Positions 3,858 through 25,830 of a stretch of 64,000 nt of DNA are shown here, one piece after another (position 1 is the first letter of the stretch; every line of letters begins with the position of its first letter). The stretch lies in contig LCRX01000006.1 in NCBI GenBank assembly GCA_001004885.1, positions 35,079 through 99,078 on the forward strand, in the 5' to 3' direction. Under the pieces are notes generated by a model that had not been told where the DNA came from, ran no database searches, and saw nothing but the letters and a program-made list of their open reading frames with translations. Both the position numbers and the translations under genes were made by a program. The stretch is from Candidatus Magasanikbacteria bacterium GW2011_GWA2_56_11 (GTDB lineage: Bacteria; Patescibacteriota; Patescibacteriia; Magasanikbacterales; UBA922).

Positions 3858-5303
3858 ATGAAAAATTTTTTCGGCAATAAAATTCAGTGGGTGTGGACAA
3901 TGCGTAAGTTAAATACGCCACTCTCCGTCTCGTCATACCTGCCTGGCGTCAAGATGGGACAAAAATATTTCGGATACCCGACGCATTTGAGCGCGACATG
4001 GTACGACCATGGTGACATTTATTTTGATAAAGAAGAAATCAAGGCCATCGCAGAATTTCTCAGATACAAAACGCGTGGCGACTCCGATTATCCAGACAAA
4101 ATCGCAAAACATATTTTTTCTTTCGCCAAAGAAATTGATCGCCAAACGCCTCCAAACACAAAAGGTAAGTCTTTACCGCAGCTTATCACGCTTTTCAAGA
4201 AAGAGCAGAAACTATTTTTGCAAATGATCGGTTTCATGAGCTACCGCGGTTCAGTGCAAATGGGCGATATTTTGCGGGAGCAGCTTGAAACTATTTTGAC
4301 GTACCGCCTCGGAGAAAAGCACAAACTAAACCAATTTGGGCAATATATCGAAACGCTCTCATATCCGTACCACGAAAGCATTATTGCCGAAGAGAAAAAA
4401 AATATTCTGCGCCTGGCAAGCGGTTTCAAGAATTTGACGAAAGTAAAACAGGAACAAGCGGTTCATGTCTACTGGAAGAAATATGAATGGTTGGCTTACC
4501 ATTGGTTTGTGGGGGCGCCACCGAACGAAAAACAGCTGAAAGACCGGATTGAAAAACTTGCGCCAACTGCCAAAAAAGAACTGGTCGCTCTGGCGGAGCT
4601 CCAAAAAGAGAACGAAGAAAAGGTTAGAACCGCCGTTCACGACCTCGATCTGAATGACAAGGAGAAAAAAGTTGTGAGGCAATACCGCGCGTGGTTATTT
4701 CTAAGAACATTCGTAAAAGACAATATTAATAAGGCGAGCTATAAACTTTTGCCTATCCTGAACGCGATGGGGGAATCTTTCGGCATAGAATCCAAACTAA
4801 TGCCCTATTTATCGCTAGACGAAATTCACGCGCTCGCCCAATTATCGCGCCAAGAAGTAAAAAAACTCATTACTGAACGGCGCGGAGGGTTTAGCGCGGG
4901 TATTGTGGACAACAAATTTGCTTTTCAGGGATTTGACAAAAAAGTTTCCTCGGAGCGGAAAGGCGACGAACAACACGTCAAAGGTTCAATCGCATTTCGG
5001 GGCAAAATTTCCGGCGTCGCCAAAGTTTTGCTTTCGCCACAAGAACAACATGATTTGAAAAAGGGAGAAATTCTAGTGACCCCAATGACCACGCCCGACT
5101 TACTGCCGGCAATGGAACGAGCCGCGGCGTTCGTAACCGACGAGGGCGGCATTACTTGCCACGCGGCTATTGTCGCGCGTGAGATGAAAAAGCCCTGCAT
5201 TATCGGAACAAGAACGGCCACCAAACAAATCCATAGCGGAGACACAATAGAGGTTGACGCGGAAAATGGGGTAGTCAATATTCTCGATAGAGCCAATTTT
5301 TAA
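3858..5303 (+). CDS. PEP-utilizing enzyme mobile (phosphohistidine) domain protein; N-terminal ~380 aa of unknown function
   Basis: The C-terminus has the GGITCHAAIVAREMKKPCIIG phosphohistidine-domain signature. The gene is AT-rich compared with its flanks. Confidence 0.55.
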   Translation: MKNFFGNKIQWVWTMRKLNTPLSVSSYLPGVKMGQKYFGYPTHLSATWYDHGDIYFDKEEIKAIAEFLRYKTRGDSDYPDKIAKHIFSFAKEIDRQTPPNTKGKSLPQLITLFKKEQKLFLQMIGFMSYRGSVQMGDILREQLETILTYRLGEKHKLNQFGQYIETLSYPYHESIIAEEKKNILRLASGFKNLTKVKQEQAVHVYWKKYEWLAYHWFVGAPPNEKQLKDRIEKLAPTAKKELVALAELQKENEEKVRTAVHDLDLNDKEKKVVRQYRAWLFLRTFVKDNINKASYKLLPILNAMGESFGIESKLMPYLSLDEIHALAQLSRQEVKKLITERRGGFSAGIVDNKFAFQGFDKKVSSERKGDEQHVKGSIAFRGKISGVAKVLLSPQEQHDLKKGEILVTPMTTPDLLPAMERAAAFVTDEGGITCHAAIVAREMKKPCIIGTRTATKQIHSGDTIEVDAENGVVNILDRANF

Positions 5304-5315
5304 CATGACGGTACT

Positions 5316-5747
5316 ATGGCAGAATTACCAGATGAAAACTCAAAGCGGTTCATCGCCGTCCTTAATAAAAAAGTTGAGCCGGGTCGTGCCATGAACGCGC
5401 TTGGCCACATGGCAGCCGGTCTCGCGGGTGGCTCTGGAAAAGCGGATGAAATGTGCTTCCTGCAATACGAAGACAAAAATGGCGGCGTTCATCCAAACAT
5501 CTCGCACTATCCGTTCATTGTCCTAAAAGCGGGCAATTCAAATAAAATTCGTATAGTTAGAAGTGAGTGCCTAACCCGCGGTATTCCATTTTCAGATTTT
5601 ACAAGCACAATGACAATTGGTACGTCTCAAGAACAGCAGAACGCTACCCTCTCGACCCCGGAAGAAGAACTTGAATACTGTGGTATCGTCATGTTCGGCT
5701 CGACGCAAGAATTAAGAGAATTTACCGGCAAGTTTTCGTTGTATTAA
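5316..5747 (+). CDS. hypothetical protein, DUF2000-like
   Basis: 143-aa ORF in the low-GC island; family assignment is from memory of NALGHMAAGL-type motifs. Confidence 0.4.
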   Translation: MAELPDENSKRFIAVLNKKVEPGRAMNALGHMAAGLAGGSGKADEMCFLQYEDKNGGVHPNISHYPFIVLKAGNSNKIRIVRSECLTRGIPFSDFTSTMTIGTSQEQQNATLSTPEEELEYCGIVMFGSTQELREFTGKFSLY

Positions 5748-5748
5748 T

Positions 5749-6375
5749 ATGGAACATTTAGCTCTTATTGGTACAGTCACAGTCATTCATTTATTGGCCG
5801 TCATCAGTCCGGGGCCCGATTTTATTATGGCGTGCAGGAATTCGTTGACCTATTCACGCAAAACTGGTATCTGGACAGCAATCGGTTTTGGCCTCGGAAT
5901 TGCAACTCACATTTTTTATTCCCTGGCCGGCCTCGCTTTGATTATTTCCAGGTCTATTCTGCTGTTCAGCGTCATCAAATTTTTAGGGGCCGGATATTTG
6001 ATTTACATCGGTCTTAAATCTGTTTTATCGAAATCCTCAAAAATTGAACTCGGCGAAGAGCGAAAGAAGGAAGATATTACTCGCTTTGCGGCAGTCAGGA
6101 TTGGATTTTTAACAAATATGCTTAACCCAAAAGTGACTTTATTTTTTTTAAGTCTATTTACGTTCGTCATATCTCCAAAGACGCCGCTGCTGATCATGGG
6201 AATAGTAAGCGCAATTATGATAATCGACACAATGCTCTGGTTTTCGCTTGTCGCTGTATTTCTTACCCAGAAAAGAACCCGCTCAATTTTTGAAAGATTT
6301 CAGGGTGTCTTCAATAAAACATTAGGCGGACTGCTCATTGCTTTGGGCGTCAGGGTTGCCTTGCCTGAAAAATAA
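5749..6375 (+). CDS. LysE/RhtB family amino-acid exporter
   Basis: 208 aa with six hydrophobic segments. The N-terminal HLLAVISPGPDF motif is typical of the LysE/RhtB family. Confidence 0.75.
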   Translation: MEHLALIGTVTVIHLLAVISPGPDFIMACRNSLTYSRKTGIWTAIGFGLGIATHIFYSLAGLALIISRSILLFSVIKFLGAGYLIYIGLKSVLSKSSKIELGEERKKEDITRFAAVRIGFLTNMLNPKVTLFFLSLFTFVISPKTPLLIMGIVSAIMIIDTMLWFSLVAVFLTQKRTRSIFERFQGVFNKTLGGLLIALGVRVALPEK

Positions 6376-6446
6376 AATTGCGAATATTTTTAAAGCCGAT
6401 CAAAACACCGCCTCACGTGGTATTCGTCATTTAATAAAATGACAGA

Positions 6447-7073
6447 ATGGAGAGCCTCGTATTAATCAGCACAATTCTGGCCGTACACGTCTTTGCTTGG
6501 TTTACTCCCGGTCCACTTTTTGTATTAATCATCAGAAATTCGTTGGTGTATTCGCGCCAGTCTGGAATCTGGACAGCGGTCGGAATAGCAATCGGCAACT
6601 TTATCCATATTACATACTCTGTGGCTGGAATGGCGTTTATCATTTCCGCGTCGCCAGTTACTTTCAGTGTCATCAAGTTTTTGGGCGTCGGTTATCTGGC
6701 GTACCTCGGAATCAAAACTTTCCTAATTAAAGCGGAAACACAAAAGGGGGCACCATGTTCTGGCGCACACAAAGATTTTTCTCCTTTCCAGACGGCAAAA
6801 ATTGGCTTCTTAGCAAACATTCTTAGTCCTAAAGCATCGCTTTTTTTTGCAAGCATATTCGCGACAGTAATAGCGTCCGGCTCTCCGTTTTGGGTTGTTA
6901 TATTTTTGTGGATCGCAATGCCACTCAATTCCTTTATCATGGCTTCCATACTTTCCATTTTTTTCACACAAAATAAAGTCAGAAGTTTTTACGCCAACTA
7001 TCAACACATGGTGAACCAACTACTCGGCGTGCTATTGCTTGCGCTGGCAATAATGATCGCGATCCACAAATAG
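6447..7073 (+). CDS. LysE/RhtB family amino-acid exporter (tandem paralog)
   Basis: 208 aa and colinear with the preceding gene (HVFAWFTPGPLF motif), which indicates a tandem duplication. Confidence 0.75.
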   Translation: MESLVLISTILAVHVFAWFTPGPLFVLIIRNSLVYSRQSGIWTAVGIAIGNFIHITYSVAGMAFIISASPVTFSVIKFLGVGYLAYLGIKTFLIKAETQKGAPCSGAHKDFSPFQTAKIGFLANILSPKASLFFASIFATVIASGSPFWVVIFLWIAMPLNSFIMASILSIFFTQNKVRSFYANYQHMVNQLLGVLLLALAIMIAIHK

Positions 7074-7149
7074 AAAATTAGGGTTTAAGCGGTGGAAAAA
7101 CCCGCAATGGAAGGAAGTGGCAACGTATTAACTATTCCTCCCATGAATG

Positions 7150-7178
7150 AAAACAAAAAACACTTTTGGTAAAGTGTT
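7150..7178 (-). terminator. rho-independent terminator for the minus-strand gene 7254-7517
   Basis: Hairpin AACACTTT-ACCA-AAAGTGTT on the minus strand, followed by a U-tract (an A-run at 7151-7160 on the + strand). Confidence 0.55.
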
Positions 7179-7253
7179 GTGCCGCCCCTCACCGTGAACC
7201 ACGTTGGTCCAGATGAGGGGCGATGCGGGACCGTTGGCGCCGGCGTGGTCGCG

Positions 7254-7517
7254 CTAGTCGATGATGGCGTGTATGACCCCGACGCCGTACTGCAGCAGAG
7301 CCTCGAGGCCGATCCGCAGGTGGTCGGGGTCGCTCATCACAACCTCGTGGAACTCGCGCGCGAGTTCGTGGTCCTGCATGATGCCCTCGACCGCGCTGCC
7401 GGATAAGACGCCGTTGGACGACTGCTGCTCGGCACGTGCGAGGATCCCCACAGCCAGATTTCCCAGCCGATCCTTGTTGTCCTCCACGAACTTCCTGACG
7501 TTCGCCAGTGCGTACAT
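7254..7517 (-). CDS. hypothetical small protein (87 aa)
   Basis: AAGGAGGTG Shine-Dalgarno 7 nt upstream of the ATG, a terminator downstream, and a TTGACG -35-like box upstream. Confidence 0.55.
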   Translation of the reverse strand: MYALANVRKFVEDNKDRLGNLAVGILARAEQQSSNGVLSGSAVEGIMQDHELAREFHEVVMSDPDHLRIGLEALLQYGVGVIHAIID

Positions 7518-7811: not shown

Positions 7812-9299
7812 ATGAAAGATCGTCTTCTCCGGATAGCCAACTCGAAAAGCCGCGTTTTTTTCGCTCTCTGTTTATGCTTTCTGGCCGGGGTTTTCGCGGC
7901 CTCGCTTGGCAGCGGCAACGCCGCCCTTCGGGGGCCCTGTCTCACCCTATTGTTCTGTCTCGCCGCCCTGCTTTTTGTCGGTTGGCGTTACGTTCTGCCC
8001 CGTTTGGCCATCATCGGCGTCATCGCCTTCATCGCCGGCAGTCTGCGCTACGCGCAGGCTTACCCGGACGAGCACGCCTACGGAGTACGCAATTTAGCCG
8101 GCCAAACCGTCACGCTCGCGGGCTTTGTAGCCGCGGAGCCCGACATCCGCCTAAGCGATCAGCGGCTTATCGTGAACGTATCGGATCCGCCCGGACGGGT
8201 TTACCTGAAAATTCCTCTCTATCCCCGCTATGCTTACGGGGACAGAGTAAAGATAACCTGCCGGCTAAGACGCCCCGAAGCGATGGCCACTGATAACGGC
8301 CGGGTTTTTCGCTACGATATGTACCTGGCCCGCCTGGGCGTGTTTGCCCTCTGTGAAAATCCGGTAATAGCCAAAATCGGCGGCGGGGAGGGCAGCCGGG
8401 CGCGGGCCGAGATTCTGCGCGCCAAGGCGCTAGTCGCGGGGAAAGTCGAACTTTTGTGGAGCGAGCCGCACGCGAGCTTTATGGCCGGGCTTTTGTACGG
8501 CTATCGCGGCGGTCTGGGCAGCCTGCAGGAGCAGTTTAACCTAACCGGCGTTACGCACATCGTGGCCGTATCTGGCTACAACATTACCATCATAGCGACG
8601 ATTCTCATTTCCCTGTGCACTTATCTCTATATTCCGCGGCAGAGGGCTTTCTGGTTCGTAGTCGCCGGTATTGTCCTGTTTGTCGCTTTCACCGGCGCCT
8701 CGGCCTCGGTGGTCCGGGCGGGAATAATGGGGATAATCGCGCTGCTCGGCAGGCAACTGGGCCGGCCGTCGCGCAGCGGCAATGTGCTTGTTCTGGCGGC
8801 CGCCGTTATGGTCGCGCACAACCCGTTCGTTTTGCTCTCTGATGCCGGGTTCCAACTGTCTTTTCTTTCGACGCTGGGTCTGGTTTACATCAATCCGCTG
8901 ATTAAAAACCGGTTTCTGGCGGTACCGGGGATGTCGGGCCTGAATGAAACTCTCACGAGTACCTTGTCGGCTATTATCGCTACCTGCCCCCTCATTCTCT
9001 ACCAGTTTGGCCGTCTGTCATTGGTGGCTCCGGTGGTAAATATACTTATTCTTTGGCTTATACCCTGGCTCATGCTTCTCGGAGCGGCGGCCGTGGCGGT
9101 AAGTTTTTTTTCCGGTTTTTTGGGCCAGATCGCGGCCGGCATCGCCTGGGTCGGACTCGAGTACATTATTGTCGTGGTGCGCTGGTTTGCCGCCTGGCCG
9201 TGGGCGTCCATATCCGTCGGGTTGCCCTGGTGGGGGATGGCGGCAATGTATTGTGGTATGCTATACCTAGCCGGTAAATATTTCGGTAAGGGACGATAA
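7812..9299 (+). CDS. comEC: ComEC/Rec2 competence protein, membrane core only (DUF4131 plus competence domain)
   Basis: 495-aa polytopic membrane protein with the typical ComEC channel region; it lacks the C-terminal MBL domain. Confidence 0.75.
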   Translation: MKDRLLRIANSKSRVFFALCLCFLAGVFAASLGSGNAALRGPCLTLLFCLAALLFVGWRYVLPRLAIIGVIAFIAGSLRYAQAYPDEHAYGVRNLAGQTVTLAGFVAAEPDIRLSDQRLIVNVSDPPGRVYLKIPLYPRYAYGDRVKITCRLRRPEAMATDNGRVFRYDMYLARLGVFALCENPVIAKIGGGEGSRARAEILRAKALVAGKVELLWSEPHASFMAGLLYGYRGGLGSLQEQFNLTGVTHIVAVSGYNITIIATILISLCTYLYIPRQRAFWFVVAGIVLFVAFTGASASVVRAGIMGIIALLGRQLGRPSRSGNVLVLAAAVMVAHNPFVLLSDAGFQLSFLSTLGLVYINPLIKNRFLAVPGMSGLNETLTSTLSAIIATCPLILYQFGRLSLVAPVVNILILWLIPWLMLLGAAAVAVSFFSGFLGQIAAGIAWVGLEYIIVVVRWFAAWPWASISVGLPWWGMAAMYCGMLYLAGKYFGKGR

Positions 9300-12320: not shown

Positions 12321-13457
12321 ATGGGTATTTTCGGCCACAAGATAGAGTCCTACATTGGCGTCGATATCGGAGCCCACGGCGTCAAGCTGGTGGAGTTGAG
12401 AAAAAACAAAGGCCGGCCGCAGCTGTGGACCTATGGTTTGGTGGACAAGAATTTGGATATACACCTTTCCGCCGTCGGCGAGAGAGGCATACCGGAATTA
12501 CGCGCCGAGCAGACTGGGGGCGGGCGGTCAACTCCGGCCGAAGTTTTGCCGTCCACCCTCGAGACCGATGAGAGACGGATAGCCGAGTACGCTGAACTGC
12601 TCAAGGTAATAGTCAAAAAAGCCCGCGTAGAGGGCCGCCGGGCAGTCTCCAGCATTCCTGTATCTTCGGTTTTTCACACCGTAATCAACCTGCCGAAAGT
12701 GGAGCCCAAGGAGGTCGACGCCCTGGTGCGGGCCGAAGTGGCCAAGGTGTTGCCGCGGCCTCTCGAAGAGATGCAAGTGGTCCACCAGCCGGTACCGCTC
12801 GACAAAGAGGCCGAAAAAAAATATTTGCGGCTGCTCGTAACGGCAGCGCCAAAGAATTTCGTCGCTTTTTACACCTCTGTGTTCCGTCGCGCCGGCCTGG
12901 AACTTAGCGAACTCGAGACCGAAGCTTTCGCCCTCGCCCGGTCGCTAGTCGGCCGCGACCAGTCGGTTTCCATGCTTATTGACATCGGTGCCGAGAGGAC
13001 CAATTTTTCCATTATCGACCAGGGACTGCCCATGACCCAGCGCAGTCTCCAGATCGGCGGCAACAACATTGACGCTGTTTTGGCCGAGATACTGGGGTTG
13101 CCGATCGAGCCGGTGGGCAAGCTGGTGCACGACCTGTCCTATCTCCCTCCAGAGACTTTGCGCGCCGAACCGTTTGTGCGGCTCTTGGAGCCTATCGTCA
13201 AAGAGATACAGTATCATTTCGATCTCTACCTTCACCAAAGCGGCAATGAGGGCAAACGGCCCGAAAAAATTATTTTGACCGGCGGCGTGGCGCTTTTCCC
13301 GCCGGTTATGAGCTATATTAAACGATTTTTTCCCTTGCGCGTTTTCATCGGCGATCCTTGGGCCCGGGTGATTTACCAAGATAAACTAAAGACCATTATC
13401 GGCGAGCTCGGACCCAGAATGGCAGTGAGTATCGGGTTGGCGTTGCGTAATTTTTGA
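12321..13457 (+). CDS. pilM: type IV pilus assembly protein PilM (actin-like ATPase fold)
   Basis: 378 aa with an N-terminal IGVDIGAHGVKLVEL motif (the PilM/FtsA-like fold); it lies next to the pilin and PilD genes. Confidence 0.75.
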   Translation: MGIFGHKIESYIGVDIGAHGVKLVELRKNKGRPQLWTYGLVDKNLDIHLSAVGERGIPELRAEQTGGGRSTPAEVLPSTLETDERRIAEYAELLKVIVKKARVEGRRAVSSIPVSSVFHTVINLPKVEPKEVDALVRAEVAKVLPRPLEEMQVVHQPVPLDKEAEKKYLRLLVTAAPKNFVAFYTSVFRRAGLELSELETEAFALARSLVGRDQSVSMLIDIGAERTNFSIIDQGLPMTQRSLQIGGNNIDAVLAEILGLPIEPVGKLVHDLSYLPPETLRAEPFVRLLEPIVKEIQYHFDLYLHQSGNEGKRPEKIILTGGVALFPPVMSYIKRFFPLRVFIGDPWARVIYQDKLKTIIGELGPRMAVSIGLALRNF

Positions 13458-14028: not shown

Positions 14029-14466
14029 ATGAACAAGAAAGGTTTTACATTGATCGAGCTTTTGGTGGTCATTGCCATTATCGCCCTGTTATCCACGCTG
14101 GCGGTGGTAGCGTTGGGTTCGGCGCGTAAAAAGGCTAATGATGCGAAACGGTTGTCGGACGTAAAACAAATGCAGACCGCTCTCGAGTTGTTTTATACGG
14201 ACAAGAATACCTACCCGACGACGACCGCTTCGGGAATTACACTTGGTGCGGGTAGCGCTGCTTGTCTCAACGGCGGCGGTTTTGCAGCCACAGGTTGTGC
14301 CAACGCCTATATGGGACAGGTGCCGGAAGATCCGGGGAGCACCGATTACACCTATACCTCCACTGACGGTACTAGTTACACGATTACCGCGACCCTCGAG
14401 TCCGGTGCCGGCAATTTGAGTGCCGGAGGCGTCGAAGCGAGCCCGTCGGGCATCAAGAACCAGTAA
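14029..14466 (+). CDS. type IV pilin / pseudopilin
   Basis: N-terminal KGFTLIELLVVIAIIALL prepilin cleavage and methylation motif, with a GGGAGGTGA Shine-Dalgarno 7 nt upstream. Confidence 0.85.
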   Translation: MNKKGFTLIELLVVIAIIALLSTLAVVALGSARKKANDAKRLSDVKQMQTALELFYTDKNTYPTTTASGITLGAGSAACLNGGGFAATGCANAYMGQVPEDPGSTDYTYTSTDGTSYTITATLESGAGNLSAGGVEASPSGIKNQ

Positions 14467-14808: not shown

Positions 14809-15582
14809 ATGGCAGTTATGCCGGTTATAATTTTTTTTCTTGGCCTGGCTTTTGGCAGTTTTTTGAACGCGCTCGAGTGGCGGCTGGCGCATGGCTGGTC
14901 CGTTTTTCAGGGCCGTTCGCAATGCACCCGGTGCGCCCGGCGGCTCGCCTGGTGGGAGAACATGCCGGTGGTGAGTTTTTTGCTGCTTCGGGGCAGGTGC
15001 CGGAGTTGCCGGCAGCCCATTTCCCTCCAGTATCCTCTGGTGGAATTGATTGTGGCCGCTCTCTGGGTGTTTTCATGGTATCGGGCCGGAGAGCCGGCCG
15101 TGGCCTCTTTGGAGTTTGTCGGGGCGGCGCGGGCGGCAGTAATCGTCTGGCTGTCCGTATTTCTCTTTGTTTACGATTTAAAACACCAGGAGGTGCCTGA
15201 CGGTCCGGTATTAGGCGGGGCGCTGGTCATTTTTTTGCTGGCCCTGGTTACCGGCGAGCCTTCTTGGGGGGTCATGCTGATTGGCGCCGCTGCCGGCGCC
15301 GGCTTTTTTCTTTGGCAATATCTGCTGTCCCGAGGCCGCTGGATTGGCGGCGGCGATGTCCGTATCGGACTTTTTATCGGTCTGGCCGTCGGCTGGCCCA
15401 TGGTAGTCTTTGCCCTCATGGCCGCCTATATTATCGGCGCGGTCGTCAGTGTGGTCCTCGTCTCCTGGCGTCTCCAGTCGTTCTCCGGCCGCACTCCTTT
15501 CGGTACTTACTTGTCATTAGCCTTGCTTTTGGCCCTTTGGTTTGGCCCCGGCATTGTCGGCTGGTACCTCTCCCTTTTTTAG
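14809..15582 (+). CDS. pilD: prepilin peptidase PilD (A24 family)
   Basis: N-terminal CTRCARR...CRSCRQ tetra-Cys zinc motif, then a polytopic membrane domain with conserved Asp-containing loops. Confidence 0.8.
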   Translation: MAVMPVIIFFLGLAFGSFLNALEWRLAHGWSVFQGRSQCTRCARRLAWWENMPVVSFLLLRGRCRSCRQPISLQYPLVELIVAALWVFSWYRAGEPAVASLEFVGAARAAVIVWLSVFLFVYDLKHQEVPDGPVLGGALVIFLLALVTGEPSWGVMLIGAAAGAGFFLWQYLLSRGRWIGGGDVRIGLFIGLAVGWPMVVFALMAAYIIGAVVSVVLVSWRLQSFSGRTPFGTYLSLALLLALWFGPGIVGWYLSLF

Positions 15583-15643
15583 GGGCCGGCATCGGGCGGC
15601 TATTTGGCCACCCGGTTTTGTGCACATCAATTATTAAAAATCC

Positions 15644-15672
15644 TTGACGCTCAAGACAAAATCCGGTATTAT
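15644..15672 (+). promoter_or_regulatory. sigma70-like promoter upstream of the ATP synthase operon
   Basis: TTGACG, a 17-bp spacer, then TATTAT. Confidence 0.5.
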
Positions 15673-15705
15673 ACTGGCGTTTTATATCTTTCTTTACAGC
15701 CTCGT

Positions 15706-15984
15706 ATGCCGCTCCTCACCAGCCCGAAAGACCGACGTTTTGCGCTTTTGGGGCTGCGCATAACCGGGGATTTCGGCGCCACGATCGCTGTACCGATAGT
15801 TGGTTTCGTTCTGGCCGGACAGTGGCTCGACAAGCGGTACGCGGCCGGACCGTGGTTCACGATTGCTGCTTTTCTGCTTTCGGCACTTCTTTCCGGTCGG
15901 ATGATTTACCGCAAGGCGAAAGCTTACGGCCGGGAATACCAGGCGCTTCTTAACGAGAAGGACGATCAAAAACCGCTGCGTTGA
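15706..15984 (+). CDS. AtpZ/AtpI-like small membrane protein (first gene of the F1Fo operon)
   Basis: Two TM helices with GDFGATIAVPIVGFVLAGQWLDKRY-type spacing. It sits directly upstream of atpB. The ATG at 15706 was chosen because the ORF-track start lies upstream of the promoter. Confidence 0.5.
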   Translation: MPLLTSPKDRRFALLGLRITGDFGATIAVPIVGFVLAGQWLDKRYAAGPWFTIAAFLLSALLSGRMIYRKAKAYGREYQALLNEKDDQKPLR

Positions 15985-16012: not shown

Positions 16013-16798
16013 ATGGCCGAGATTCACATTCCGACTCTGGCTCCCGAAGTGCTGGCGCATGTGGGGCCAGTGGCTATCACCAACACCATGGTCAATACCT
16101 GGCTGGCGTTGGTGATATTCGCGGTGCTCGGCGTCATAATTACGCGGCAGGCCAGCTTGCGGCCCGGCAAGCTTCAAAACGGGGCGGAATACATTTTGGA
16201 ACAGCTCCTGGGTTATTTTGACCAGGTAACCGGCGACCCGGCCAAGACGCGGCGGTTTCTTCCCCTCGTCGGTTCGATTTTCTTTTTTATCCTGCTCTCA
16301 AATTGGCTGGGACTCTTGCCGGGAACCGGCAGCCTTTCGTACGGACACAGTTTTGTCCTGCGGCCGGCCAATACCGATCTTAATTTGACGCTGGCCATGG
16401 CCTTGACTTCGGTGGCCGCTTCGCATCTGTTCGGCTTTATCACCGTCGGATTTTTTAGCCACGCCGGTAAATTTTTTCAAATCAAAGGCATCTTCCGGAG
16501 TTTGACCAAAGGGCCGGTCGCTATCTTTACCGCTGTCATTGAGTTTATGGTCGGACTGATCGAAATTGTGAGCGAAGCCGCCAAAGTCTTGTCGCTGTCC
16601 CTGCGGTTGTTCGGCAACATTTTTGCCGGCGAGGTGCTTATTTCCGTCATCAGCGCCTTGGTAACGGCTTTGGTTCCGACGCCGTTTATGCTTTTGGAAC
16701 TGCTGGTTGGCCTGATTCAGGCTTCGGTTTTCGCCATGTTGACACTGGTGTATCTGACTGTCGCGAGCGAGGCGCCGCACGGGTCGGAGGAGCATTAG
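16013..16798 (+). CDS. atpB: F0F1 ATP synthase subunit a
   Basis: 261 aa and polytopic, with the conserved Arg-containing LSLSLRLFGNIFAGE helix. Confidence 0.9.
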   Translation: MAEIHIPTLAPEVLAHVGPVAITNTMVNTWLALVIFAVLGVIITRQASLRPGKLQNGAEYILEQLLGYFDQVTGDPAKTRRFLPLVGSIFFFILLSNWLGLLPGTGSLSYGHSFVLRPANTDLNLTLAMALTSVAASHLFGFITVGFFSHAGKFFQIKGIFRSLTKGPVAIFTAVIEFMVGLIEIVSEAAKVLSLSLRLFGNIFAGEVLISVISALVTALVPTPFMLLELLVGLIQASVFAMLTLVYLTVASEAPHGSEEH

Positions 16799-16904: not shown

Positions 16905-17180
<276 letters not shown>

Positions 17181-17254: not shown

Positions 17255-17824
17255 ATGAGTGCCGTTACTGAAATCGCCGTGACCGAATCGGCTCCGGTGG
17301 CCGAGCTATCCGAAACCACCGCGGCCGAGGGCGGAGTGGCCGCTTCGCTCGGGCTTAACGCCCAGCTGTTTGGCTGGCAATTATTGAATTTTGCCGTGGT
17401 CGCGCTAATCGTGTGGTTCCTCATCCTCAAGCCGCTGGCCAAAAAAATGGAAGAGCGCCGGAAGATAATCGACGACAGTCTGGATCAGGCGCGCGAGATC
17501 GAAACCCGGCACGCCCTAAGTCGGGAGCAGTACCAGACAGCGGTGGCCGAGGCCAAGGCCGAGGCCAACCGGATAGTCGCCTCGGCGCACGACGAAGCGG
17601 CGGCGCTTGCCGGCCAGATGAAAGGCGAGACTAAGAAAGAGATCGACGTTCTGGTATCCCAGGCCAAGAAAAATATCGAGCTTGACCGCCAGAATATGCA
17701 GCAGGAAGTAAAAAAAGAGATAGTGGACGTGGTGATCGCGGCCGTGGAAAAAATTCTCGAAGAGAAGCTCGACGAGAAAGAAGACCGTAAACTCGTCGAA
17801 GGGGCCCTTAAAAGCATCAAATAA
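17255..17824 (+). CDS. atpF: F0F1 ATP synthase subunit b
   Basis: Single N-terminal TM helix followed by a long charged helix. Confidence 0.8.
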   Translation: MSAVTEIAVTESAPVAELSETTAAEGGVAASLGLNAQLFGWQLLNFAVVALIVWFLILKPLAKKMEERRKIIDDSLDQAREIETRHALSREQYQTAVAEAKAEANRIVASAHDEAAALAGQMKGETKKEIDVLVSQAKKNIELDRQNMQQEVKKEIVDVVIAAVEKILEEKLDEKEDRKLVEGALKSIK

Positions 17825-17832
17825 CCATTGCT

Positions 17833-18225
17833 ATGCGCAAATTATTGCCGCGCCATTTCGGGAAAATGCTCTACCAGCTTACGCGGGATCTTCCGGAAAA
17901 AGAACTGGACCAGGCGGTGGCAGAGTTCGTGAAATTTATGGCGCGGCACCGGGCTTTTCGCCGCCTGGATCGCATTATCGCGGCTTACGAGGTCTACGCT
18001 CGGGAGCAGGACGGTGCCGAGGATATTACCCTCGTGAGCGCCCGCCCCTTACCCGAGGCGCTGGCCGCGAAAGTAGTCAGCCATTTTGGCCGCGGGGGCA
18101 AGATTGAAACGATTGTGGACGAAACCCTTATCGGCGGACTGATAGTCAAAACCCGCCGCCGCGTTCTCGACGCCAGCGTCAAAACGCAGTTGCGCGGTCT
18201 TAAAAACGACATGTTGGCGGATTGA
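17833..18225 (+). CDS. atpH: F0F1 ATP synthase subunit delta (short, 130 aa)
   Basis: The C-terminal LIGGLIVKTRRRVLDASVKTQL matches the OSCP/delta C-terminal domain; the N-terminal domain is much shorter than usual. Confidence 0.7.
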   Translation: MRKLLPRHFGKMLYQLTRDLPEKELDQAVAEFVKFMARHRAFRRLDRIIAAYEVYAREQDGAEDITLVSARPLPEALAAKVVSHFGRGGKIETIVDETLIGGLIVKTRRRVLDASVKTQLRGLKNDMLAD

Positions 18226-18423: not shown

Positions 18424-19917
18424 ATGTCTTACACTGATCAGGTTATCACTTCTCTCAAAAAAAACGTGGCTTCGTTCGAGAAGCGCGTGGATGTCTCCGA
18501 GGTTGGCACCGTTATTGAAGTCGGCGACGGCATCGCCCGCATGGACGGCCTGGATAAATGCCAGGCGCTCGAGATGCTTGAATTCCCCGGCGGAATTTTC
18601 GGTATTGCCCTCAACCTGGAAGAGGAAACCGTCGGCGCGATTATTTTGGGCGACTTCAAAAAAATTAAAGAAGGCGACAGCGTTAAGCGCACCGGCCGCA
18701 TTATGTCCATCCCGGTAGGCGAGGCGATGATCGGACGCGTGGTCAATTCTCTCGGCGAAGCGGTTGACGGCCGGGGAAAAATCAAGACAGAAACTCTCTA
18801 TCCGCTTGAACGCGTGGCGCCGGGCGTGATTACCCGCGAGCCGGTGAACCGGCCGCTGCAGACCGGCATCAAGGCCATAGACGCCCTCATACCCATCGGC
18901 CGCGGCCAGCGCGAGCTTATTATCGGCGACCGCCAGACCGGGAAAACCGCCGTGGCCATAGACGCTATTATCAACCAAAAAGGCCAAAACGTGATCTGCG
19001 TCTATGTGGCTGTCGGGCAGAAAGAATCAAAGGTGGCCCGCGTGGTGGCCAAGCTCAAAGAGGCCGGCGCCATGGAGTACACGACGGTCTTTATCGCCGG
19101 CGCCTCCGAACCGGCCCCGATGTCTTATCTGGCCCCGTACGCCGGTGTCTCTCTCGCCGAGTACTTTGCCGACAAGGGCAAGGACGTACTCATAATTTAC
19201 GATGATTTGACCAAGCAGGCCTGGGCCTACCGCGAGATGTCCCTTTTGCTCCGCCGGCCGCCGGGACGCGAGGCTTATCCGGGCGATGTTTTCTATCTCC
19301 ACTCCCGTCTTTTGGAGCGCGCCTGCAATCTGAACAAAGAGCATGGTGGCGGCTCCATCACCGCGCTGCCCATTATCGAGACGCAGGCCGGAGATATCAG
19401 CGCCTATATTCCGACCAACGTTATCTCGATCACCGACGGCCAGATTTTTCTGGAAACTGAATTGTTTTACCGCGGCATCCGCCCGGCCTTGAACGTCGGT
19501 TTGTCCGTCTCGCGCGTCGGCGGTTCTGCCCAAATTAAACCCATGAAAAAAGTGGCCGGTAGCATGAAGCTCGCGCTGGCCCAATTCCGCGAACTGGAAG
19601 CGTTCGCGCAATTTTCTAGTGATCTTGATCCAGAAACCAAAAAGCAAATTGAGCGTGGTCGTCGTATTACCGAACTCCTCAAACAGCCGCAATATTCACC
19701 CATGCCGGTGGCGTCGCAGGTAATGATTATTTACGCCGTGAACAATGGTTTCTTTGATAGTACCGAAATCAGCGCTATTACCGAAAAGCAAAACGCGTTT
19801 GTGGAATTTATGAGTTCGGCGAAGAGCGCGCTATTAGATAAAATTAGTGCCGGTGAATGGAATGAAGAAACGGAAAAAACGATCGCATCATCTTGCGAAG
19901 AATTTTTTACTAAATAA
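18424..19917 (+). CDS. atpA: F0F1 ATP synthase subunit alpha
   Basis: Walker A motif GDRQTGKT. The last ~100 codons are markedly lower in GC. Confidence 0.95.
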
Positions 19918-19926
19918 TTAAATTAT

Positions 19927-20550
19927 ATGGGAGAATTTGAAAGAACTCCACGCTCCCTAGAACAAGTATTAAGTGAACGAGGTTTGACCATTGACCCTAT
20001 CGCGGCAGTTCCTGACCATATAACTATCAGACCCCTTGCTAAGGAACTACAAGTGAAAGCTAAAATTGATGTCCTCGGAATTGCTACTGTTGTTTTCTTT
20101 GAAAATCCAGAAGAGGCGGGAAAATTTATGGCAGTCTGGTGCTTCAATGGAGAAGAAACAACGAGAAAATATGGCAATAGGATTGACGTAGAAGCAGAAG
20201 TGGCGGAGTCAATTGAACTTAATTTGCGCAGTGAAAAAGAAAAAAACGAAGCTGTTGTCGAATTATATTCATTAGTTAATAGATACGGCGGCTCTATAAA
20301 GGAAATTCGTGAATTCCCCGCAGATTTAGATGGCACGGGTTCATTTTATATGAAACCTTCAGATTTTGGTCCCGAAGGCCGTACTGTTTTAAGGATGGAT
20401 TTTCCACACGGGATAACGATTTTGTCCTTGCCAGTTTCTGGTCGCGAATTGTATGTCGGTCTTTTTAAGAACGGAAAGTATCAGGGCGGAAATGGAGATT
20501 TTTCGGTTCACGAAATAGAGTCTAATATCAGAATTCTAAACGAAGGATAA
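19927..20550 (+). CDS. hypothetical protein inserted between atpA and atpG (low GC)
   Basis: 207-aa ORF with no recognisable motif. Its composition is far more AT-rich than the surrounding operon. Confidence 0.6.
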   Translation: MGEFERTPRSLEQVLSERGLTIDPIAAVPDHITIRPLAKELQVKAKIDVLGIATVVFFENPEEAGKFMAVWCFNGEETTRKYGNRIDVEAEVAESIELNLRSEKEKNEAVVELYSLVNRYGGSIKEIREFPADLDGTGSFYMKPSDFGPEGRTVLRMDFPHGITILSLPVSGRELYVGLFKNGKYQGGNGDFSVHEIESNIRILNEG

Positions 20551-20558
20551 ATGGTTAT

Positions 20559-21503
20559 ATGGCCGTCAATTCCAAAGCAATTAAACAACGCATCAAGTCG
20601 GTTAAGAACACCAAAAAAATGACCAAGGCCATGGAAATGGTCTCGGCCGCGAAGATGCGCAAAGCCGTCCAGGGTACGCTCGCCACCAGAAGCTACGCGG
20701 TCATGGCGCGCGAGCTCATGGAGGCGCTTTCGGCCGGCATCGAGGTCCAGTCTCCGCTTCTCGAGTACCGCCCGGTGGCGCGGCTTTTGGTGGTGCTTAT
20801 CAGCTCCAATCGCGGACTTTGCGGCAGCTTTAACGCGAATATCTTCAAAAAGGCCAGGCAAATTTTACGGGAGAAACAAAGCCTCGGCCGCCACCGCACG
20901 GCCCGCGGCGAAACGATCGAGCCGGCGGCCGAGATCGCCATTGACATTCTTGGCGTCGGCAAGAAGAGCGCCTGGTTCGCGCGCCAGTCCGGCTATCCGC
21001 TCGTGGCCGCGTTTGACGAGCTTTCCGAGCGGCCCACATTCGAAGAAATCATTCCGATCACGCGCTTCGTGATGGACGCTTTCAGCCAGAAAACTTATGA
21101 CAAGGTCGCCGTTTTGTTCACCGATTACAAGTCGAGTTTGGCCCAGGAAGTGAAGGTCAGACAGCTATTGCCCATTTCGGCTCACGACCTGGAAAAAATG
21201 CTTCGAGACTCGGTTGGGGATGCCGGCGATCCGCGCGGCATCGACTCCGAACATTACGTATTTGAGCCTAGCCCGTCGTTGATCGTACAGACCGTTTTAC
21301 CGCGGCTGGCGGAGGTACAGCTGTATCAGGGAATTTTGGAATCAGCGGCCAGCGAGCACAGCGCCCGCATGGTGGCGATGAAGAGCGCCACCGAAGCGGC
21401 GGGCGAGATGATTGATATGCTGACATTAGAATTCAATAAGGCGCGGCAGGCTTCCATTACTCAAGAAATCGCCGAGATTGCCGGGGGCGCGGCCGCTCTG
21501 TAA
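20559..21503 (+). CDS. atpG: F0F1 ATP synthase subunit gamma
   Basis: N-terminal MAVNSKAIKQRIKSVKNTKKMTKAMEMVSAAKMRKA is the gamma-subunit signature. Confidence 0.9.
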   Translation: MAVNSKAIKQRIKSVKNTKKMTKAMEMVSAAKMRKAVQGTLATRSYAVMARELMEALSAGIEVQSPLLEYRPVARLLVVLISSNRGLCGSFNANIFKKARQILREKQSLGRHRTARGETIEPAAEIAIDILGVGKKSAWFARQSGYPLVAAFDELSERPTFEEIIPITRFVMDAFSQKTYDKVAVLFTDYKSSLAQEVKVRQLLPISAHDLEKMLRDSVGDAGDPRGIDSEHYVFEPSPSLIVQTVLPRLAEVQLYQGILESAASEHSARMVAMKSATEAAGEMIDMLTLEFNKARQASITQEIAEIAGGAAAL

Positions 21504-21527: not shown

Positions 21528-22922
<1,395 letters not shown>

Positions 22923-22930
22923 TCTTTCCT

Positions 22931-23269
22931 ATGAGTAGAGACCGAGAATCGAGGCCAATAAGCCTGATGAGAGAAATGTTGCGTCAGGATTACGCCCAGG
23001 GGGTTCGTATTCTGGCGCGCGACGTCCTGGCGGTGCAGAAAGAACCGGATTGGTCCGGCTATGTCGCCGAGGTGATTGAACATGCCCGGACTGGCGAAAC
23101 ACGCAATCCGGAAGTAGACGCCATTTTGGCGCGGATACTCATGAAAAAACATTATTTAACTCTCGAAGAGATAGTAGCGATATCCGATGACGTCGCCCGA
23201 GAGTGCCTTGTTCTCCTCGGGGGAGATATAGCCGATCATTATGCAGAGTCCGGACAAGCTACAATTTAA
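22931..23269 (+). CDS. hypothetical protein (112 aa) between atpD and atpC
   Basis: Its only support is that it fills a 318-bp gap inside the operon; there is no Shine-Dalgarno and no recognisable motif. Confidence 0.3.
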   Translation: MSRDRESRPISLMREMLRQDYAQGVRILARDVLAVQKEPDWSGYVAEVIEHARTGETRNPEVDAILARILMKKHYLTLEEIVAISDDVARECLVLLGGDIADHYAESGQATI

Positions 23270-23669
23270 GCTCGTTACTCCCGATGGCATCGTCTACGAC
23301 GACGCCATCGACCAGGTCAGCATCCCGACAGCCGCGGGCGAGATTACGGTTTTGCCGCGTCATATTCCGCTCGTTTCGATTATCAGCGCGGGAGAACTAA
23401 GGCTAAAAAAGGATGGCGCCGAGATACCGCTCGTAGTCTCCGGCGGTGTTCTGGAGATTCGTCCGGGCAGCCAACTTTACGTTCTGGCCGATACCGCGGA
23501 GAGAGCCGAGCATATCGACATGGAACGCGCGGAAGCGGCCCGGGCGCGCGCCGAAGAGCTTATGAAACAGAAGGAACAGATGGCCGATGTCGACTTTGCC
23601 CGCTTGCAGGCCAAAATGGAAAAAGAACTGGCCCGCCTGCGCGTCGGCAGAAAGTACCGGAAAATTTAG
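23241..23669 (+). CDS. atpC: F0F1 ATP synthase subunit epsilon
   Basis: N-terminal beta-sandwich (LVTPDGIVYDDAIDQVSIPTAAGEITVLP) plus a C-terminal helical hairpin. Confidence 0.85.
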   Translation: MQSPDKLQFKLVTPDGIVYDDAIDQVSIPTAAGEITVLPRHIPLVSIISAGELRLKKDGAEIPLVVSGGVLEIRPGSQLYVLADTAERAEHIDMERAEAARARAEELMKQKEQMADVDFARLQAKMEKELARLRVGRKYRKI

Positions 23670-23983: not shown

Positions 23984-24012
23984 CCCGCAGAGAGCTGCGG
24001 GTTTTTATTTTG
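23984..24012 (+). terminator. rho-independent terminator
   Basis: CCCGCAG-AGAG-CTGCGGG followed by TTTTTATTTT. Confidence 0.65.
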
Positions 24013-24072
24013 GGGCGCGGGGTAGAAAAAATTATCCCGTTTATCTATACTAGCAATAGCGCCGACCGGCTT

Positions 24073-25830
24073 ATGAATTACCACACGGGTTTAACGCTTA
24101 GGATTTACCTGCGGCACATCCTCCAGTACAAGTGGAGTTTTTTTGGGCTGCTCTTGTTTGTAGTGGTTGGCTCTGCCGTGGGCGTCATCATTCCTCTTTA
24201 CTATAAACAATTTTTTGATACCCTTTCCGACCCGAGCATCGCCGCCGTCCGCGAGCGTCTGGTAACTGTTCTCTTTGCCATCGCGGCTCTGCACACAGCC
24301 GAAGTAATATTGTGGCGCGGCGCCGGTTTTGTCAACAATTATTTTGAGCCGTACGTTACCGCCGCCATAGGCAATTACTGCTTCGGCTACCTGCACCGGC
24401 ATTCTTTCAGTTTTTTCAGCGGTCATTTTGTCGGCGCGCTGGTCCGGCGCGTCAACAAGTTTACGGGTTCGTTCGAACGGATTTTGGACCGATGCGTTTG
24501 GAACATCCTCCAACTGGTCGTAAACGTGGCCGTGATTTTATTCGTGCTTTCCTCACGCGACCGGCGCCTCATGGTTATTGTCCTTGTTTGGACCATTTTA
24601 TTTTCTCTTATCAACTGGTTTATCACCGGGTACAAGATGAAATACGACGTGCGCCGCAGCGAGGCCGAGACCCGGGCCAACGGCATTCTGGCGGACACGA
24701 TTACCAACAATGTCAACGTCAAGCTGTTCAACGGATACGCGCGCGAGCGCTCCCTCTACGCGCAAGCCCTCTTTGTGGTCCGGCGCTTGCGCAAGTTCAC
24801 CTGGGACCTGGACGTGATGTTTGAAACGGTCCAGGCGACGCTCATGGTGGCGCTCGAGATCGGCATTTTTTACTTCGCCATTGGCTTGTGGGAGAACGGA
24901 ACCCTCACGGTCGGCGATTTTGTGCTTATCCAGTCGTATCTTCTGACCATCTTCCTGCGGGTCTGGGATTTTGGCAAGATTATCCGCGACATTTTCACCG
25001 ATCTGGCCGATGCCGAAGATATGGCCGTTGTTTTGGATACGCCGCACGAAATCCAGGACATACCGCATGCCCGGCCGCTCGCGGTTAAAGGCGGCAACAT
25101 CCTCTTCAAGGACGTCAGCTTTTACTACCACAGCACGCGGCCGATTATCACCCATTTTAATCTGCATATCCGGCCGCACGAGCGGCTGGCGCTGGTGGGG
25201 CCCTCCGGCGCGGGCAAGTCAACACTCGTTAAACTCCTCATGCGCATGCACGATATCACGGACGGCAAAGTTTTCATTGACGAACAGGAAATCCGCAAGG
25301 TAACGCAGGAAAGCCTCTGGCAGGGTATTAGCTTTGTTCCGCAAGAGCCGATTCTGTTTCACCGGACGCTGATGGAAAACATCCGCTACGGCGCTCCGGA
25401 GGCGACCGACGACCAGGTAATGGCAGCCGCCCAAAAAGCCCACTGCCACGAGTTCATCAGGGATTTTCCCGAGGGCTACCAGACTTTTGTCGGCGAACGC
25501 GGCGTCAAACTCTCGGGCGGCGAGCGCCAACGGGTGGCGATCGCGCGCGCCATCCTGCGCAACGCCCCGATTTTGATCCTCGACGAGGCCACGTCGAGCC
25601 TCGATTCCGAGTCCGAACGCCTGATACAGGCTGCGCTCGACATGCTCATGAAGAAAAAGACGGTCATTGTCATCGCGCACCGCCTGTCGACCATCATGAA
25701 GATGGACCGCATCGTGGTCATAGACCGGGGGCAGATAACGGAAGAGGGGACCCACGCGGAGCTTATTCGCAAGCGCAGCGGCCTTTACCACAAGCTCTGG
25801 AGCTTGCAGGCCGGCGGGTTTTTGCAGTAA
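24073..25830 (+). CDS. ABC transporter, fused permease and ATPase (exporter type)
   Basis: Six N-terminal TM segments, then Walker A GPSGAGKST, the LSGGERQRVAIARA signature and Walker B ILILDEATS. The ATG at 24073 is preferred over the TTG at 24010. Confidence 0.85.
   Translation: MNYHTGLTLRIYLRHILQYKWSFFGLLLFVVVGSAVGVIIPLYYKQFFDTLSDPSIAAVRERLVTVLFAIAALHTAEVILWRGAGFVNNYFEPYVTAAIGNYCFGYLHRHSFSFFSGHFVGALVRRVNKFTGSFERILDRCVWNILQLVVNVAVILFVLSSRDRRLMVIVLVWTILFSLINWFITGYKMKYDVRRSEAETRANGILADTITNNVNVKLFNGYARERSLYAQALFVVRRLRKFTWDLDVMFETVQATLMVALEIGIFYFAIGLWENGTLTVGDFVLIQSYLLTIFLRVWDFGKIIRDIFTDLADAEDMAVVLDTPHEIQDIPHARPLAVKGGNILFKDVSFYYHSTRPIITHFNLHIRPHERLALVGPSGAGKSTLVKLLMRMHDITDGKVFIDEQEIRKVTQESLWQGISFVPQEPILFHRTLMENIRYGAPEATDDQVMAAAQKAHCHEFIRDFPEGYQTFVGERGVKLSGGERQRVAIARAILRNAPILILDEATSSLDSESERLIQAALDMLMKKKTVIVIAHRLSTIMKMDRIVVIDRGQITEEGTHAELIRKRSGLYHKLWSLQAGGFLQ

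Follow-up and report, generated by a model that had tools for sequence, protein, structure and literature searches.

A low-GC tract spanning the 3′ end of atpA and a small adjoining gene in a Magasanikbacteria ATP synthase operon, probably imported through conserved flanking genes

The operon encoding the F-type ATP synthase is usually held to be untouchable and is used as a phylogenetic marker. How, then, did an AT-rich open reading frame (ORF) of 207 amino acids (aa) come to lie between atpA and atpG in the operon of a Candidatus Magasanikbacteria, and does it have anything to do with the enzyme? The question is raised by a stretch of 64,000 nucleotides (nt), here called the window, from a metagenome-assembled genome of ~55–57% GC that belongs to the candidate phyla radiation (CPR; Patescibacteria) and takes its name from a self-match of the window. 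We refer to the frame as ORF207. We conclude that it lies in a low-GC tract which was probably imported, together with the end of atpA, from a lower-GC relative with the gene already at this site, by way of homologous recombination; overall, a clean yet fairly ordinary gene exchange through conserved flanking genes is the most likely explanation of the locus.

ORF207 runs on the + strand from ATG 19927 to TAA 20550. It is separated by 9 nt from the preceding atpA (F1 α-subunit; 18424–19917, + strand; Pfam ATP-synt_ab_N, ATP-synt_ab, and ATP-synt_ab_C) and by 8 nt from the following atpG (F1 γ-subunit; 20559–21503, + strand; Pfam ATP-synt, E 1.5e-87). Its GC content is 0.405 and its GC content at third codon positions (GC3) is 0.32, compared with 0.54–0.60 and 0.65–0.75, respectively, for the other atp genes. 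Among the 57 non-overlapping window ORFs of at least 100 aa (mean GC3 0.64, standard deviation 0.08), ORF207 ranks lowest, ~4 standard deviations under the mean. A reading of the region made from the sequence only (hereafter, the sequence-only reading) had described the ORF as AT-rich relative to its operon, and had noticed a similar composition in the last ~100 codons of atpA, from about 19600. Quantitative analysis bears out both observations. A likelihood scan of atpA placed a GC3 change-point at codon 395 (nt 19609), with a GC3 of 0.71 before it and 0.40 after it, and a log-likelihood ratio (LLR) of 16.9. None of 2000 codon permutations rose above 9.8 (p ≤ 0.0005), and the LLR is the largest of the 25 long genes of the window, the highest value among the 24 others being 9.4. 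When atpA, ORF207, and atpG were fitted together with two change-points, a single tract was obtained at nt 19611–20591, + strand, with a GC3 of 0.71 to its left, 0.35 within it, and 0.73 to its right (LLR 64.3). Composition is therefore not uniform across these genes, but breaks sharply inside atpA.

The low-GC tract is ~0.98 kb long and comprises atpA codons 396–497 (19611–19917, + strand; the presumptively replaced part of the C-terminal helical domain, GC3 0.40–0.41), ORF207, both spacers, and approximately the first 10 codons of atpG. To its left, atpA codons 1–395 (18424–19610, + strand), which contain the Pfam ATP-synt_ab_N and ATP-synt_ab matches, retain the native high-GC composition (GC3 0.71), and atpG taken as a whole is likewise of the native, high-GC type (GC3 0.72). 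Low GC3 as a general trait of the atpA C-terminal domain was ruled out, as the atpA tail of 20 relatives lies at most 0.14 under the body of the gene, compared with a drop of 0.31 in the window. Tails and ORFs similar to those of the window (0.41 and 0.32, respectively) are found in lineages L001 and L045, where the atpA tail has a GC3 of 0.41–0.45 and the ORF one of 0.26–0.29.

Both edges of the tract fall in the most conserved nucleotide stretches available, which is where crossovers would be expected. The putative left crossover zone (19540–19612, + strand) coincides with the nucleotide-conservation peak of the atpA 3′ region and includes the GC3 change-point at 19609–19611; identity at 19540–19599 is 0.90 to L045 and 0.83 to L001. 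The putative right crossover zone (20551–20660, + strand; change-point at ~20591) takes in the 8-nt spacer together with the beginning of atpG, which is highly conserved, and identity at 20599–20658 is 0.90–0.92 to both of these lineages. The tract contains a single ORF and neither an integrase nor a transposase, and no meaningful direct or inverted repeats were found at its edges. An inverted-repeat search returned an imperfect palindrome at 19583–19613, inside the left crossover zone.

Sequence comparisons suggest that the atpA tail and ORF207 behave as one evolutionary unit: each has a proportion of synonymous differences (pS) to L001 of 0.67, compared with 0.83 and 0.77 in the flanks. Over atpA residues 1–394, several lineages (P0004–P0009) are equally close to the window (~88%). 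Over the tail, aa identity is 78% to L001 and 75% to L008, compared with 63–66% for lineages that are equally close over residues 1–394. At informative aa sites, the window matches L008 and L006 at 19 and 21 sites, respectively, before codon 395, and at 19 and 8 sites after it (Fisher p = 0.08), whilst the corresponding test against L007 gives p = 0.02. A different best-hit lineage for the atpA C-terminus, which had been put forward as something to look for, is thus visible as a shift toward the L001/L008 clade, but the incongruence itself is only suggestive. In atpG and atpD, the window is not especially close to the L001/L008 clade.

We propose that the tract was acquired by double homologous recombination, with crossovers at two conserved sites, one within atpA and the other at the 5′ end of atpG. 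The tract would derive from an unsampled, lower-GC relative with a gene of the ORF207 family already in its atpA/atpG spacer. Such an event would have swapped ~100 codons at the 3′ end of atpA and put the cassette in place, or exchanged it, whilst leaving the operon undisturbed. The DNA may have been taken up in free form by transformation, which is consistent with the presence, 4–12 kb upstream in the window, of genes for ComEC (7812–9299), PilM (12321–13457), a type IV pilin (14029–14466), and a prepilin peptidase (14809–15582). Given the 9- and 8-nt spacers, ORF207 would be read from the atp operon transcript; co-transcription is plausible from these spacers and from a search of the cassette interior for promoter or terminator matches, none of which was convincing. 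Shine-Dalgarno sequences are uninformative as evidence on ORF207 expression, with an obvious one absent from most of the atp genes here. The atp site would serve as a permissive, strongly transcribed landing site, and one that would perpetuate itself, because the conserved flanks let the cassette move between lineages. The tie between ORF207 and the ATP synthase would accordingly be one of position and not of function.

The sequence-only reading had envisaged a foreign gene that was inserted together with a replacement of the atpA 3′ end. The foreign composition and the joint behavior of the two parts have held up. An alien lineage as the source has not, and the event was probably not a de novo insertion. 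Because homologues occupy the same junction in L001, L045, L036, L037, and L047, which are Magasanikbacteria-like and lower in GC, it is better called the allelic import of an occupied junction from inside the same candidate phylum.

Several observations weigh against such an import. Neither a donor nor a pre-import, high-GC allele was found, and L001, the nearest relative of the tract, is near synonymous saturation (about 1.7 synonymous substitutions per site, dS), so that the direction and the age of the import are read from composition alone. The GC3 of the family ORF is also below that of its neighbors in L001, L037, L043, and L045, and in L036 it equals that of the atpA tail; part of the low GC of ORF207 may therefore be a trait of the family, although this cannot account for the atpA tail. 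The phylogenetic incongruence within atpA (p = 0.08 and 0.02) is not decisive. Half of the known lineages keep the gene at one junction across 29–66% identity, and in one clade (L036, L037, and L047; clade 2 below) the gene tracks atpG, a pattern that is also consistent with long vertical residence and with a genuine functional link to the ATP synthase. As a separate matter, we discarded the idea that L045 is a high-GC lineage closely related to the window, given that both its atpA and its ORF resemble those of L001 and that a GC3-rich atpG 5′ end is common to all lineages.

ORF207 is a real gene. Its homologue P0002 (66% identical, 206 aa), which is found at the same junction in the lower-GC lineage L001, aligns with it from residue 1, and because the N-terminus is conserved in this way the true start is ATG 19927. 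Compared with P0002, the ratio of nonsynonymous to synonymous substitution rates (dN/dS; Nei-Gojobori) is 0.15, with both halves of the protein alike, and ORF207 is thus under purifying selection. The deposited annotation, UY92_C0006G0049 (P0001), begins at an internal methionine and comprises only 140 aa, and is therefore a truncated gene model. The length of 207 aa is backed by the conservation of residues 1–68 in homologues, as well as by a confident structure model. In that model, which was made with AlphaFold2 from an 11-sequence alignment of the family (predicted local distance difference test, pLDDT, 92.8; predicted template modeling score, pTM, 0.78), a 35-residue helix links two α+β units, in each of which helices flank an antiparallel meander of four strands. 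The protein is acidic (isoelectric point, pI, 4.9) and hydrophilic (grand average of hydropathy, GRAVY, −0.31). As modeled, it looks like a functional, non-enzymatic-looking, cytoplasmic two-domain protein with a binding-module-like fold. We compared it with known tandem α+β binding modules, namely the double-RWD proteins of the kinetochore and Mediator, inhibitors of the cystatin/latexin type, and immunity proteins of Rhs toxins such as TriTu. The two halves are alike in their pattern of secondary structure, and PxDL occurs in both, but their similarity by BLASTP is nil and we make no claim of an internal duplication.

The absence of a recognizable motif, which had been noted from the sequence, is borne out by database searches. 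ORF207 has no match at E ≤ 1 in Pfam or NCBIfam, and none in PHROGs, PADLOC (defense systems), or the sequences of the PDB. Collections of phages, plasmids, and viral contigs gave no match either, and an origin from any of these was rejected on the basis of these searches and of the lack of a defense-system match. The family is very small: when 1.84 billion cluster representatives were searched exhaustively with a profile, only 11 of its proteins were recovered, and a word-indexed profile search found two further members. Of two scans of metagenomes with sequence patterns, the first (based on two sequences) gave no match and the second gave one distant, non-atp locus. The conserved core of the family is its C-terminal domain (EFPxDL ... 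LRxDFPxG.T.L ... NGKYxGGN(H/G)DF), and some members consist of little else. The contexts that were recovered look Magasanikbacteria-like or, on other metagenomic contigs, CPR-like. The family is new and unnamed, and deserves a name. Outside the window, a large secreted repeat protein (P0130, 1104 aa) gave four matches to part of the C-terminal domain (E 1.2e-8), which may reflect a distant shared domain or may be spurious.

The state of the atpA/atpG junction in relatives bears directly on the origin of the gene. The two genes border the slot in all 24 related species, as well as in the six ORF-bearing lineages. A homologue of ORF207 was sought at the ~24 related species-representative loci, and was found at none of them. 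In most of these species, atpA and atpG are 1–25 nt apart, and in L009, L014, and L015 the empty junction reads ...TTTGCCTAAtATGGCC (TAAtATG). Relatives that all carried the gene would have pointed to a vertically inherited operon member; they do not all carry it, and the junction is empty in most of the 24 species. Two relatives have other genes in the slot. In L008 (2078–2770), it holds a 230-aa membrane-anchored protein with weak, PsbP-like matches below the Pfam curated cut-off, and in L013 (3292–4011) a 239-aa GNAT acetyltransferase, the start of which overlaps the end of atpA. Over atpA residues 182–394, L008 is 100% identical in aa sequence (87% in nucleotides) to L001, which carries the ORF207 homologue. 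L013 shares 98–99% aa identity in atpA with L014, whose junction is empty. In both pairs, homology ends within 9–27 nt of the atpA stop codon and resumes 1–5 nt before the ATG of atpG. Close relatives thus differ in the occupant of the slot with sharp edges of homology, and the junction is therefore a precise, recurrent site of gene turnover; in this group, it behaves as a small gene-turnover hotspot between core genes. Nucleotide identity between L013 and L014 is 88% to the left of the junction and 96% to the right (~3290/3999), a step which suggests another recombination breakpoint at the same site. Our literature searches found no earlier mention of a gene at the atpA/atpG junction of Patescibacteria.

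Hotspots of horizontal gene transfer that are flanked by core genes have been described, and a mechanism independent of mobile elements has been proposed for them (Oliveira et al., 2017; PMC5635113). As in those hotspots, content here is variable between core genes, and the occupant differs or is absent in close relatives. Integrases, transposases, and repeats are lacking, a recombination footprint is left in a flanking core gene, and DNA-uptake machinery is encoded. Unlike those hotspots, the slot is a spacer of 1–25 nt inside an operon that ranks among the most conserved in bacteria, and not a region between operons, and it takes a single small gene. A further difference is that the exchange appears to have crossed species- or genus-level divergence (~75–85% nucleotide identity in the flanks), and not to have taken place within a species.

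Six lineages carry a family member at the atpA/atpG junction: the window, L001, L045, L036, L037–L039, and L047. Identity to ORF207 is 66% in L001, 32% in L036, and 29% in L037–L039, and L045 and L047 have short forms. That of L047 is a called product of 115 aa with no N-terminal domain and with atpG immediately downstream. The copy in L045 (441–794) starts with MGEFE, as does the window gene, but is missing the entire N-terminal domain, and appears to be an internal-deletion derivative. By their atpG sequences, the carriers form two clades, with the window, L001, and L045 in clade 1, and L036 and L037 in clade 2; the atpG proteins of L036 and L037 are 72% identical to each other and ~55% identical to everything else. 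L047 probably also belongs to clade 2, where it is placed by an atpG fragment of 23 residues only. In L037 (2–223), the ORF upstream of the family member ends in an atpA-like tail (...ELKEAIEEFKKQK). The ~60 residues before this tail, however, do not resemble atpA, and tblastn matched them to no atpA; the 3′ end of atpA may have been rearranged or interrupted here. Family members are also found away from the atp operon. In L043 (2612–3277), which is part of a genome of 65% GC, P0128 lies between xseA and xseB (the large and small subunits of exonuclease VII), and its GC3 is 0.64 compared with 0.75–0.89 for its neighbors. In L050–L055, the family member stands beside NUDIX, AbiE toxin-antitoxin, and restriction-modification genes, and in L040, L044, L046, L048, and L049 the settings are unrelated.

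We considered the possibility that ORF207 encodes a lineage-specific accessory factor of F1, i.e., an inhibitor, a regulator, or an assembly chaperone that binds the α- or γ-subunit, and that it is kept in this position for co-expression. Such a role had been suggested in the sequence-only reading, and it is the alternative that survives best, although we regard it as unlikely. It is compatible with recombination, and, taken furthest, it would have the α C-terminal domain travel with the ORF as a co-adapted module. The repeated occupation of one junction across deep divergence, the purifying selection on ORF207, its tight coupling to atpA and atpG, and the predicted binding-module-like fold could all be understood in this way. 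However, the evidence as a whole leans against it, since the family also occurs in another two-subunit operon (xseA/xseB), in a defense-type island beside the NUDIX, AbiE, and restriction-modification genes, and in the other non-atp settings, and since unrelated genes fill the same slot in sister lineages. Furthermore, most Magasanikbacteria are without a family gene, two of the junction copies lack the N-terminal domain (by deletion in L045, and in the 115-aa product called in L047), and there is no Pfam match to known regulators. Nor does the α C-terminal domain follow the ORF: similarity of the tail tracks the clade, with L008 lacking the ORF and yet being 93% identical to the L001 tail, and the atpA tail of L036 is no closer to clade 1.

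F-type ATP synthases have a number of known extra components and regulators, including the products of atpI/AtpZ-type genes, the C-terminal domain of the ε-subunit, the ζ-subunit of alphaproteobacteria, IF1, the cyanobacterial AtpTheta, and the chaperones Atp11 and Atp12. To our knowledge, none of these is encoded between the genes for the α- and γ-subunits. ORF207 resembles them in being small, acidic, soluble, and binding-module-looking, and in being encoded with the ATP synthase. It differs from them in having no Pfam match and in belonging to a family that is also found outside atp operons; moreover, the window already has a separate atpI-like gene (15604–15984, + strand; PF09527). More doubtful still is the specific proposal that the family represents a new, CPR-specific partner of the F1-ATPase, acting as a brake or an assembly aid and travelling with the α C-terminal domain. 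The spacer would then be a dedicated slot for the swapping of modulators, occupied in turn by the ORF207 family, the GNAT protein, and the PsbP-like membrane protein, in fermenters that probably run the ATPase in reverse. If ORF207 did bind F1, it would define a new class of regulator, but the present data do not favor this.

An old, vertically inherited operon member whose low GC, like that of the atpA tail, arose locally, by selection or by mutation bias (for instance, for low expression or an unstructured mRNA), is a distinctly improbable explanation. It would fit the homologues at the same position, among which the divergence of the ORF roughly tracks that of atpG (66% and 66% to L001) and clade 2 is coherent, and also the ORF GC3 that lies under that of the neighbors in several other genomes. 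What it leaves unexplained is the right edge of the tract, ~10 codons into atpG, together with the drop of 0.3–0.4 in GC3 at synonymous sites and the shift of nearest relative in the atpA tail. In addition, the sharp break in atpA is absent from the 20 relatives, and the junction is empty in most relatives, including lineages that are equally close in atpA, atpG, and atpD. We consider import by recombination to account better for these features.

The two remaining explanations are weaker again. Free-standing homing endonuclease genes of T4-like phages are known to spread by intronless homing, with co-conversion of flanking sequence. A selfish gene of this kind that cuts empty atpA/atpG junctions, with the atpA tail as its co-conversion tract, would recall the precise insertion of a small gene between conserved genes in two operons (atpA/atpG and xseA/xseB), the co-replacement of the adjacent atpA coding sequence, and the patchy distribution of the family. 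However, ORF207 has no recognized nuclease domain (LAGLIDADG, GIY-YIG, HNH, His-Cys box, or PD-(D/E)xK), nor a nuclease motif or fold, the gene is absent from phage collections, and the slot is otherwise taken by ordinary genes; this explanation was rejected as very improbable. The least credible of all, a chimera in which metagenomic reads of a high-GC and a low-GC Magasanikbacterium were joined at conserved atp sequences, is suggested by the origin of the window in a metagenome-assembled genome and by the breakpoints in conserved stretches, but is made very improbable by the recovery of the locus across both junctions in four other assemblies (three of them 100% identical over 8–12 kb, and the fourth 99.84% identical, with 11 mismatches), and inter-lineage identity at the breakpoints (80–92%) is too low for long, exact k-mer bridges. 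In L005, which is from the same population (99.84% identical), atpG is split by an indel into pieces of 90 and 166 aa (2151–3093), reflecting either an error of assembly or a strain in which the γ-subunit is disrupted.

The locus thus offers a well-delimited natural case of gene gain in CPR bacteria by way of homologous flanks, with breakpoints that can be placed within a few codons. The mechanism is already known; what is new is the protein family, the position of the hotspot within the atp operon, and the precision of the tract boundaries. For phylogeny, atpA here is a mosaic and its last 100 codons are not to be concatenated with the rest, and for annotation the deposited 140-aa gene model is in need of extension to the upstream start. 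In Magasanikbacteria, several junctions of the atp operon accommodate single-gene cassettes, which are exchanged there, and the cassette genes make up a short list of candidates for co-expression with the ATP synthase in organisms with a poorly understood energy metabolism.

Apart from ORF207, the F-type ATP synthase operon of the window is complete on the + strand, with eight canonical subunits and the atpI-like gene assigned. In addition to atpA and atpG, these are atpB (16013–16798), atpE (16950–17180), atpF (17255–17824), atpH (17833–18225), atpD (21534–22922), and atpC (23241–23669). A second ORF without a family match (22931–23269, + strand; 112 aa, pI 5.0, GC3 0.51) is located between atpD and atpC, with an overlap of 29 nt into atpC. 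It had no match in Pfam or NCBIfam and only insignificant ones in PHROGs, and tblastn of related loci was empty; gene callers predict a length of 100 aa for it. In relatives, the atpD/atpC junction of L018 (6396–7142) and L024 (6421–7137) contains a gene for a secreted cyclophilin-like protein, the motif of which was seen by eye, and L024 has an additional 104-aa ORF there (7140–7454). Between atpG and atpD, L029 has a 119-aa, cysteine-rich ORF (4860–5219), and L028 a gap of 750 nt (4858–5606).

Elsewhere in the window, a second low-GC island is found at 3858–7073, where four + strand genes have a GC content of 0.41–0.46 and a GC3 of 0.44–0.50, compared with ~0.66 elsewhere. These genes encode a PEP-utilizing mobile-domain protein, a DUF2000 protein, and two LysE-type translocators, and the island is probably another imported segment. 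The second-largest intragenic shift of GC3 in the window occurs in an ABC-transporter gene (24010–25830), where GC3 rises from 0.61 to 0.78 at codon 200 (LLR 9.4), roughly where the membrane domain gives way to the ATPase domain.

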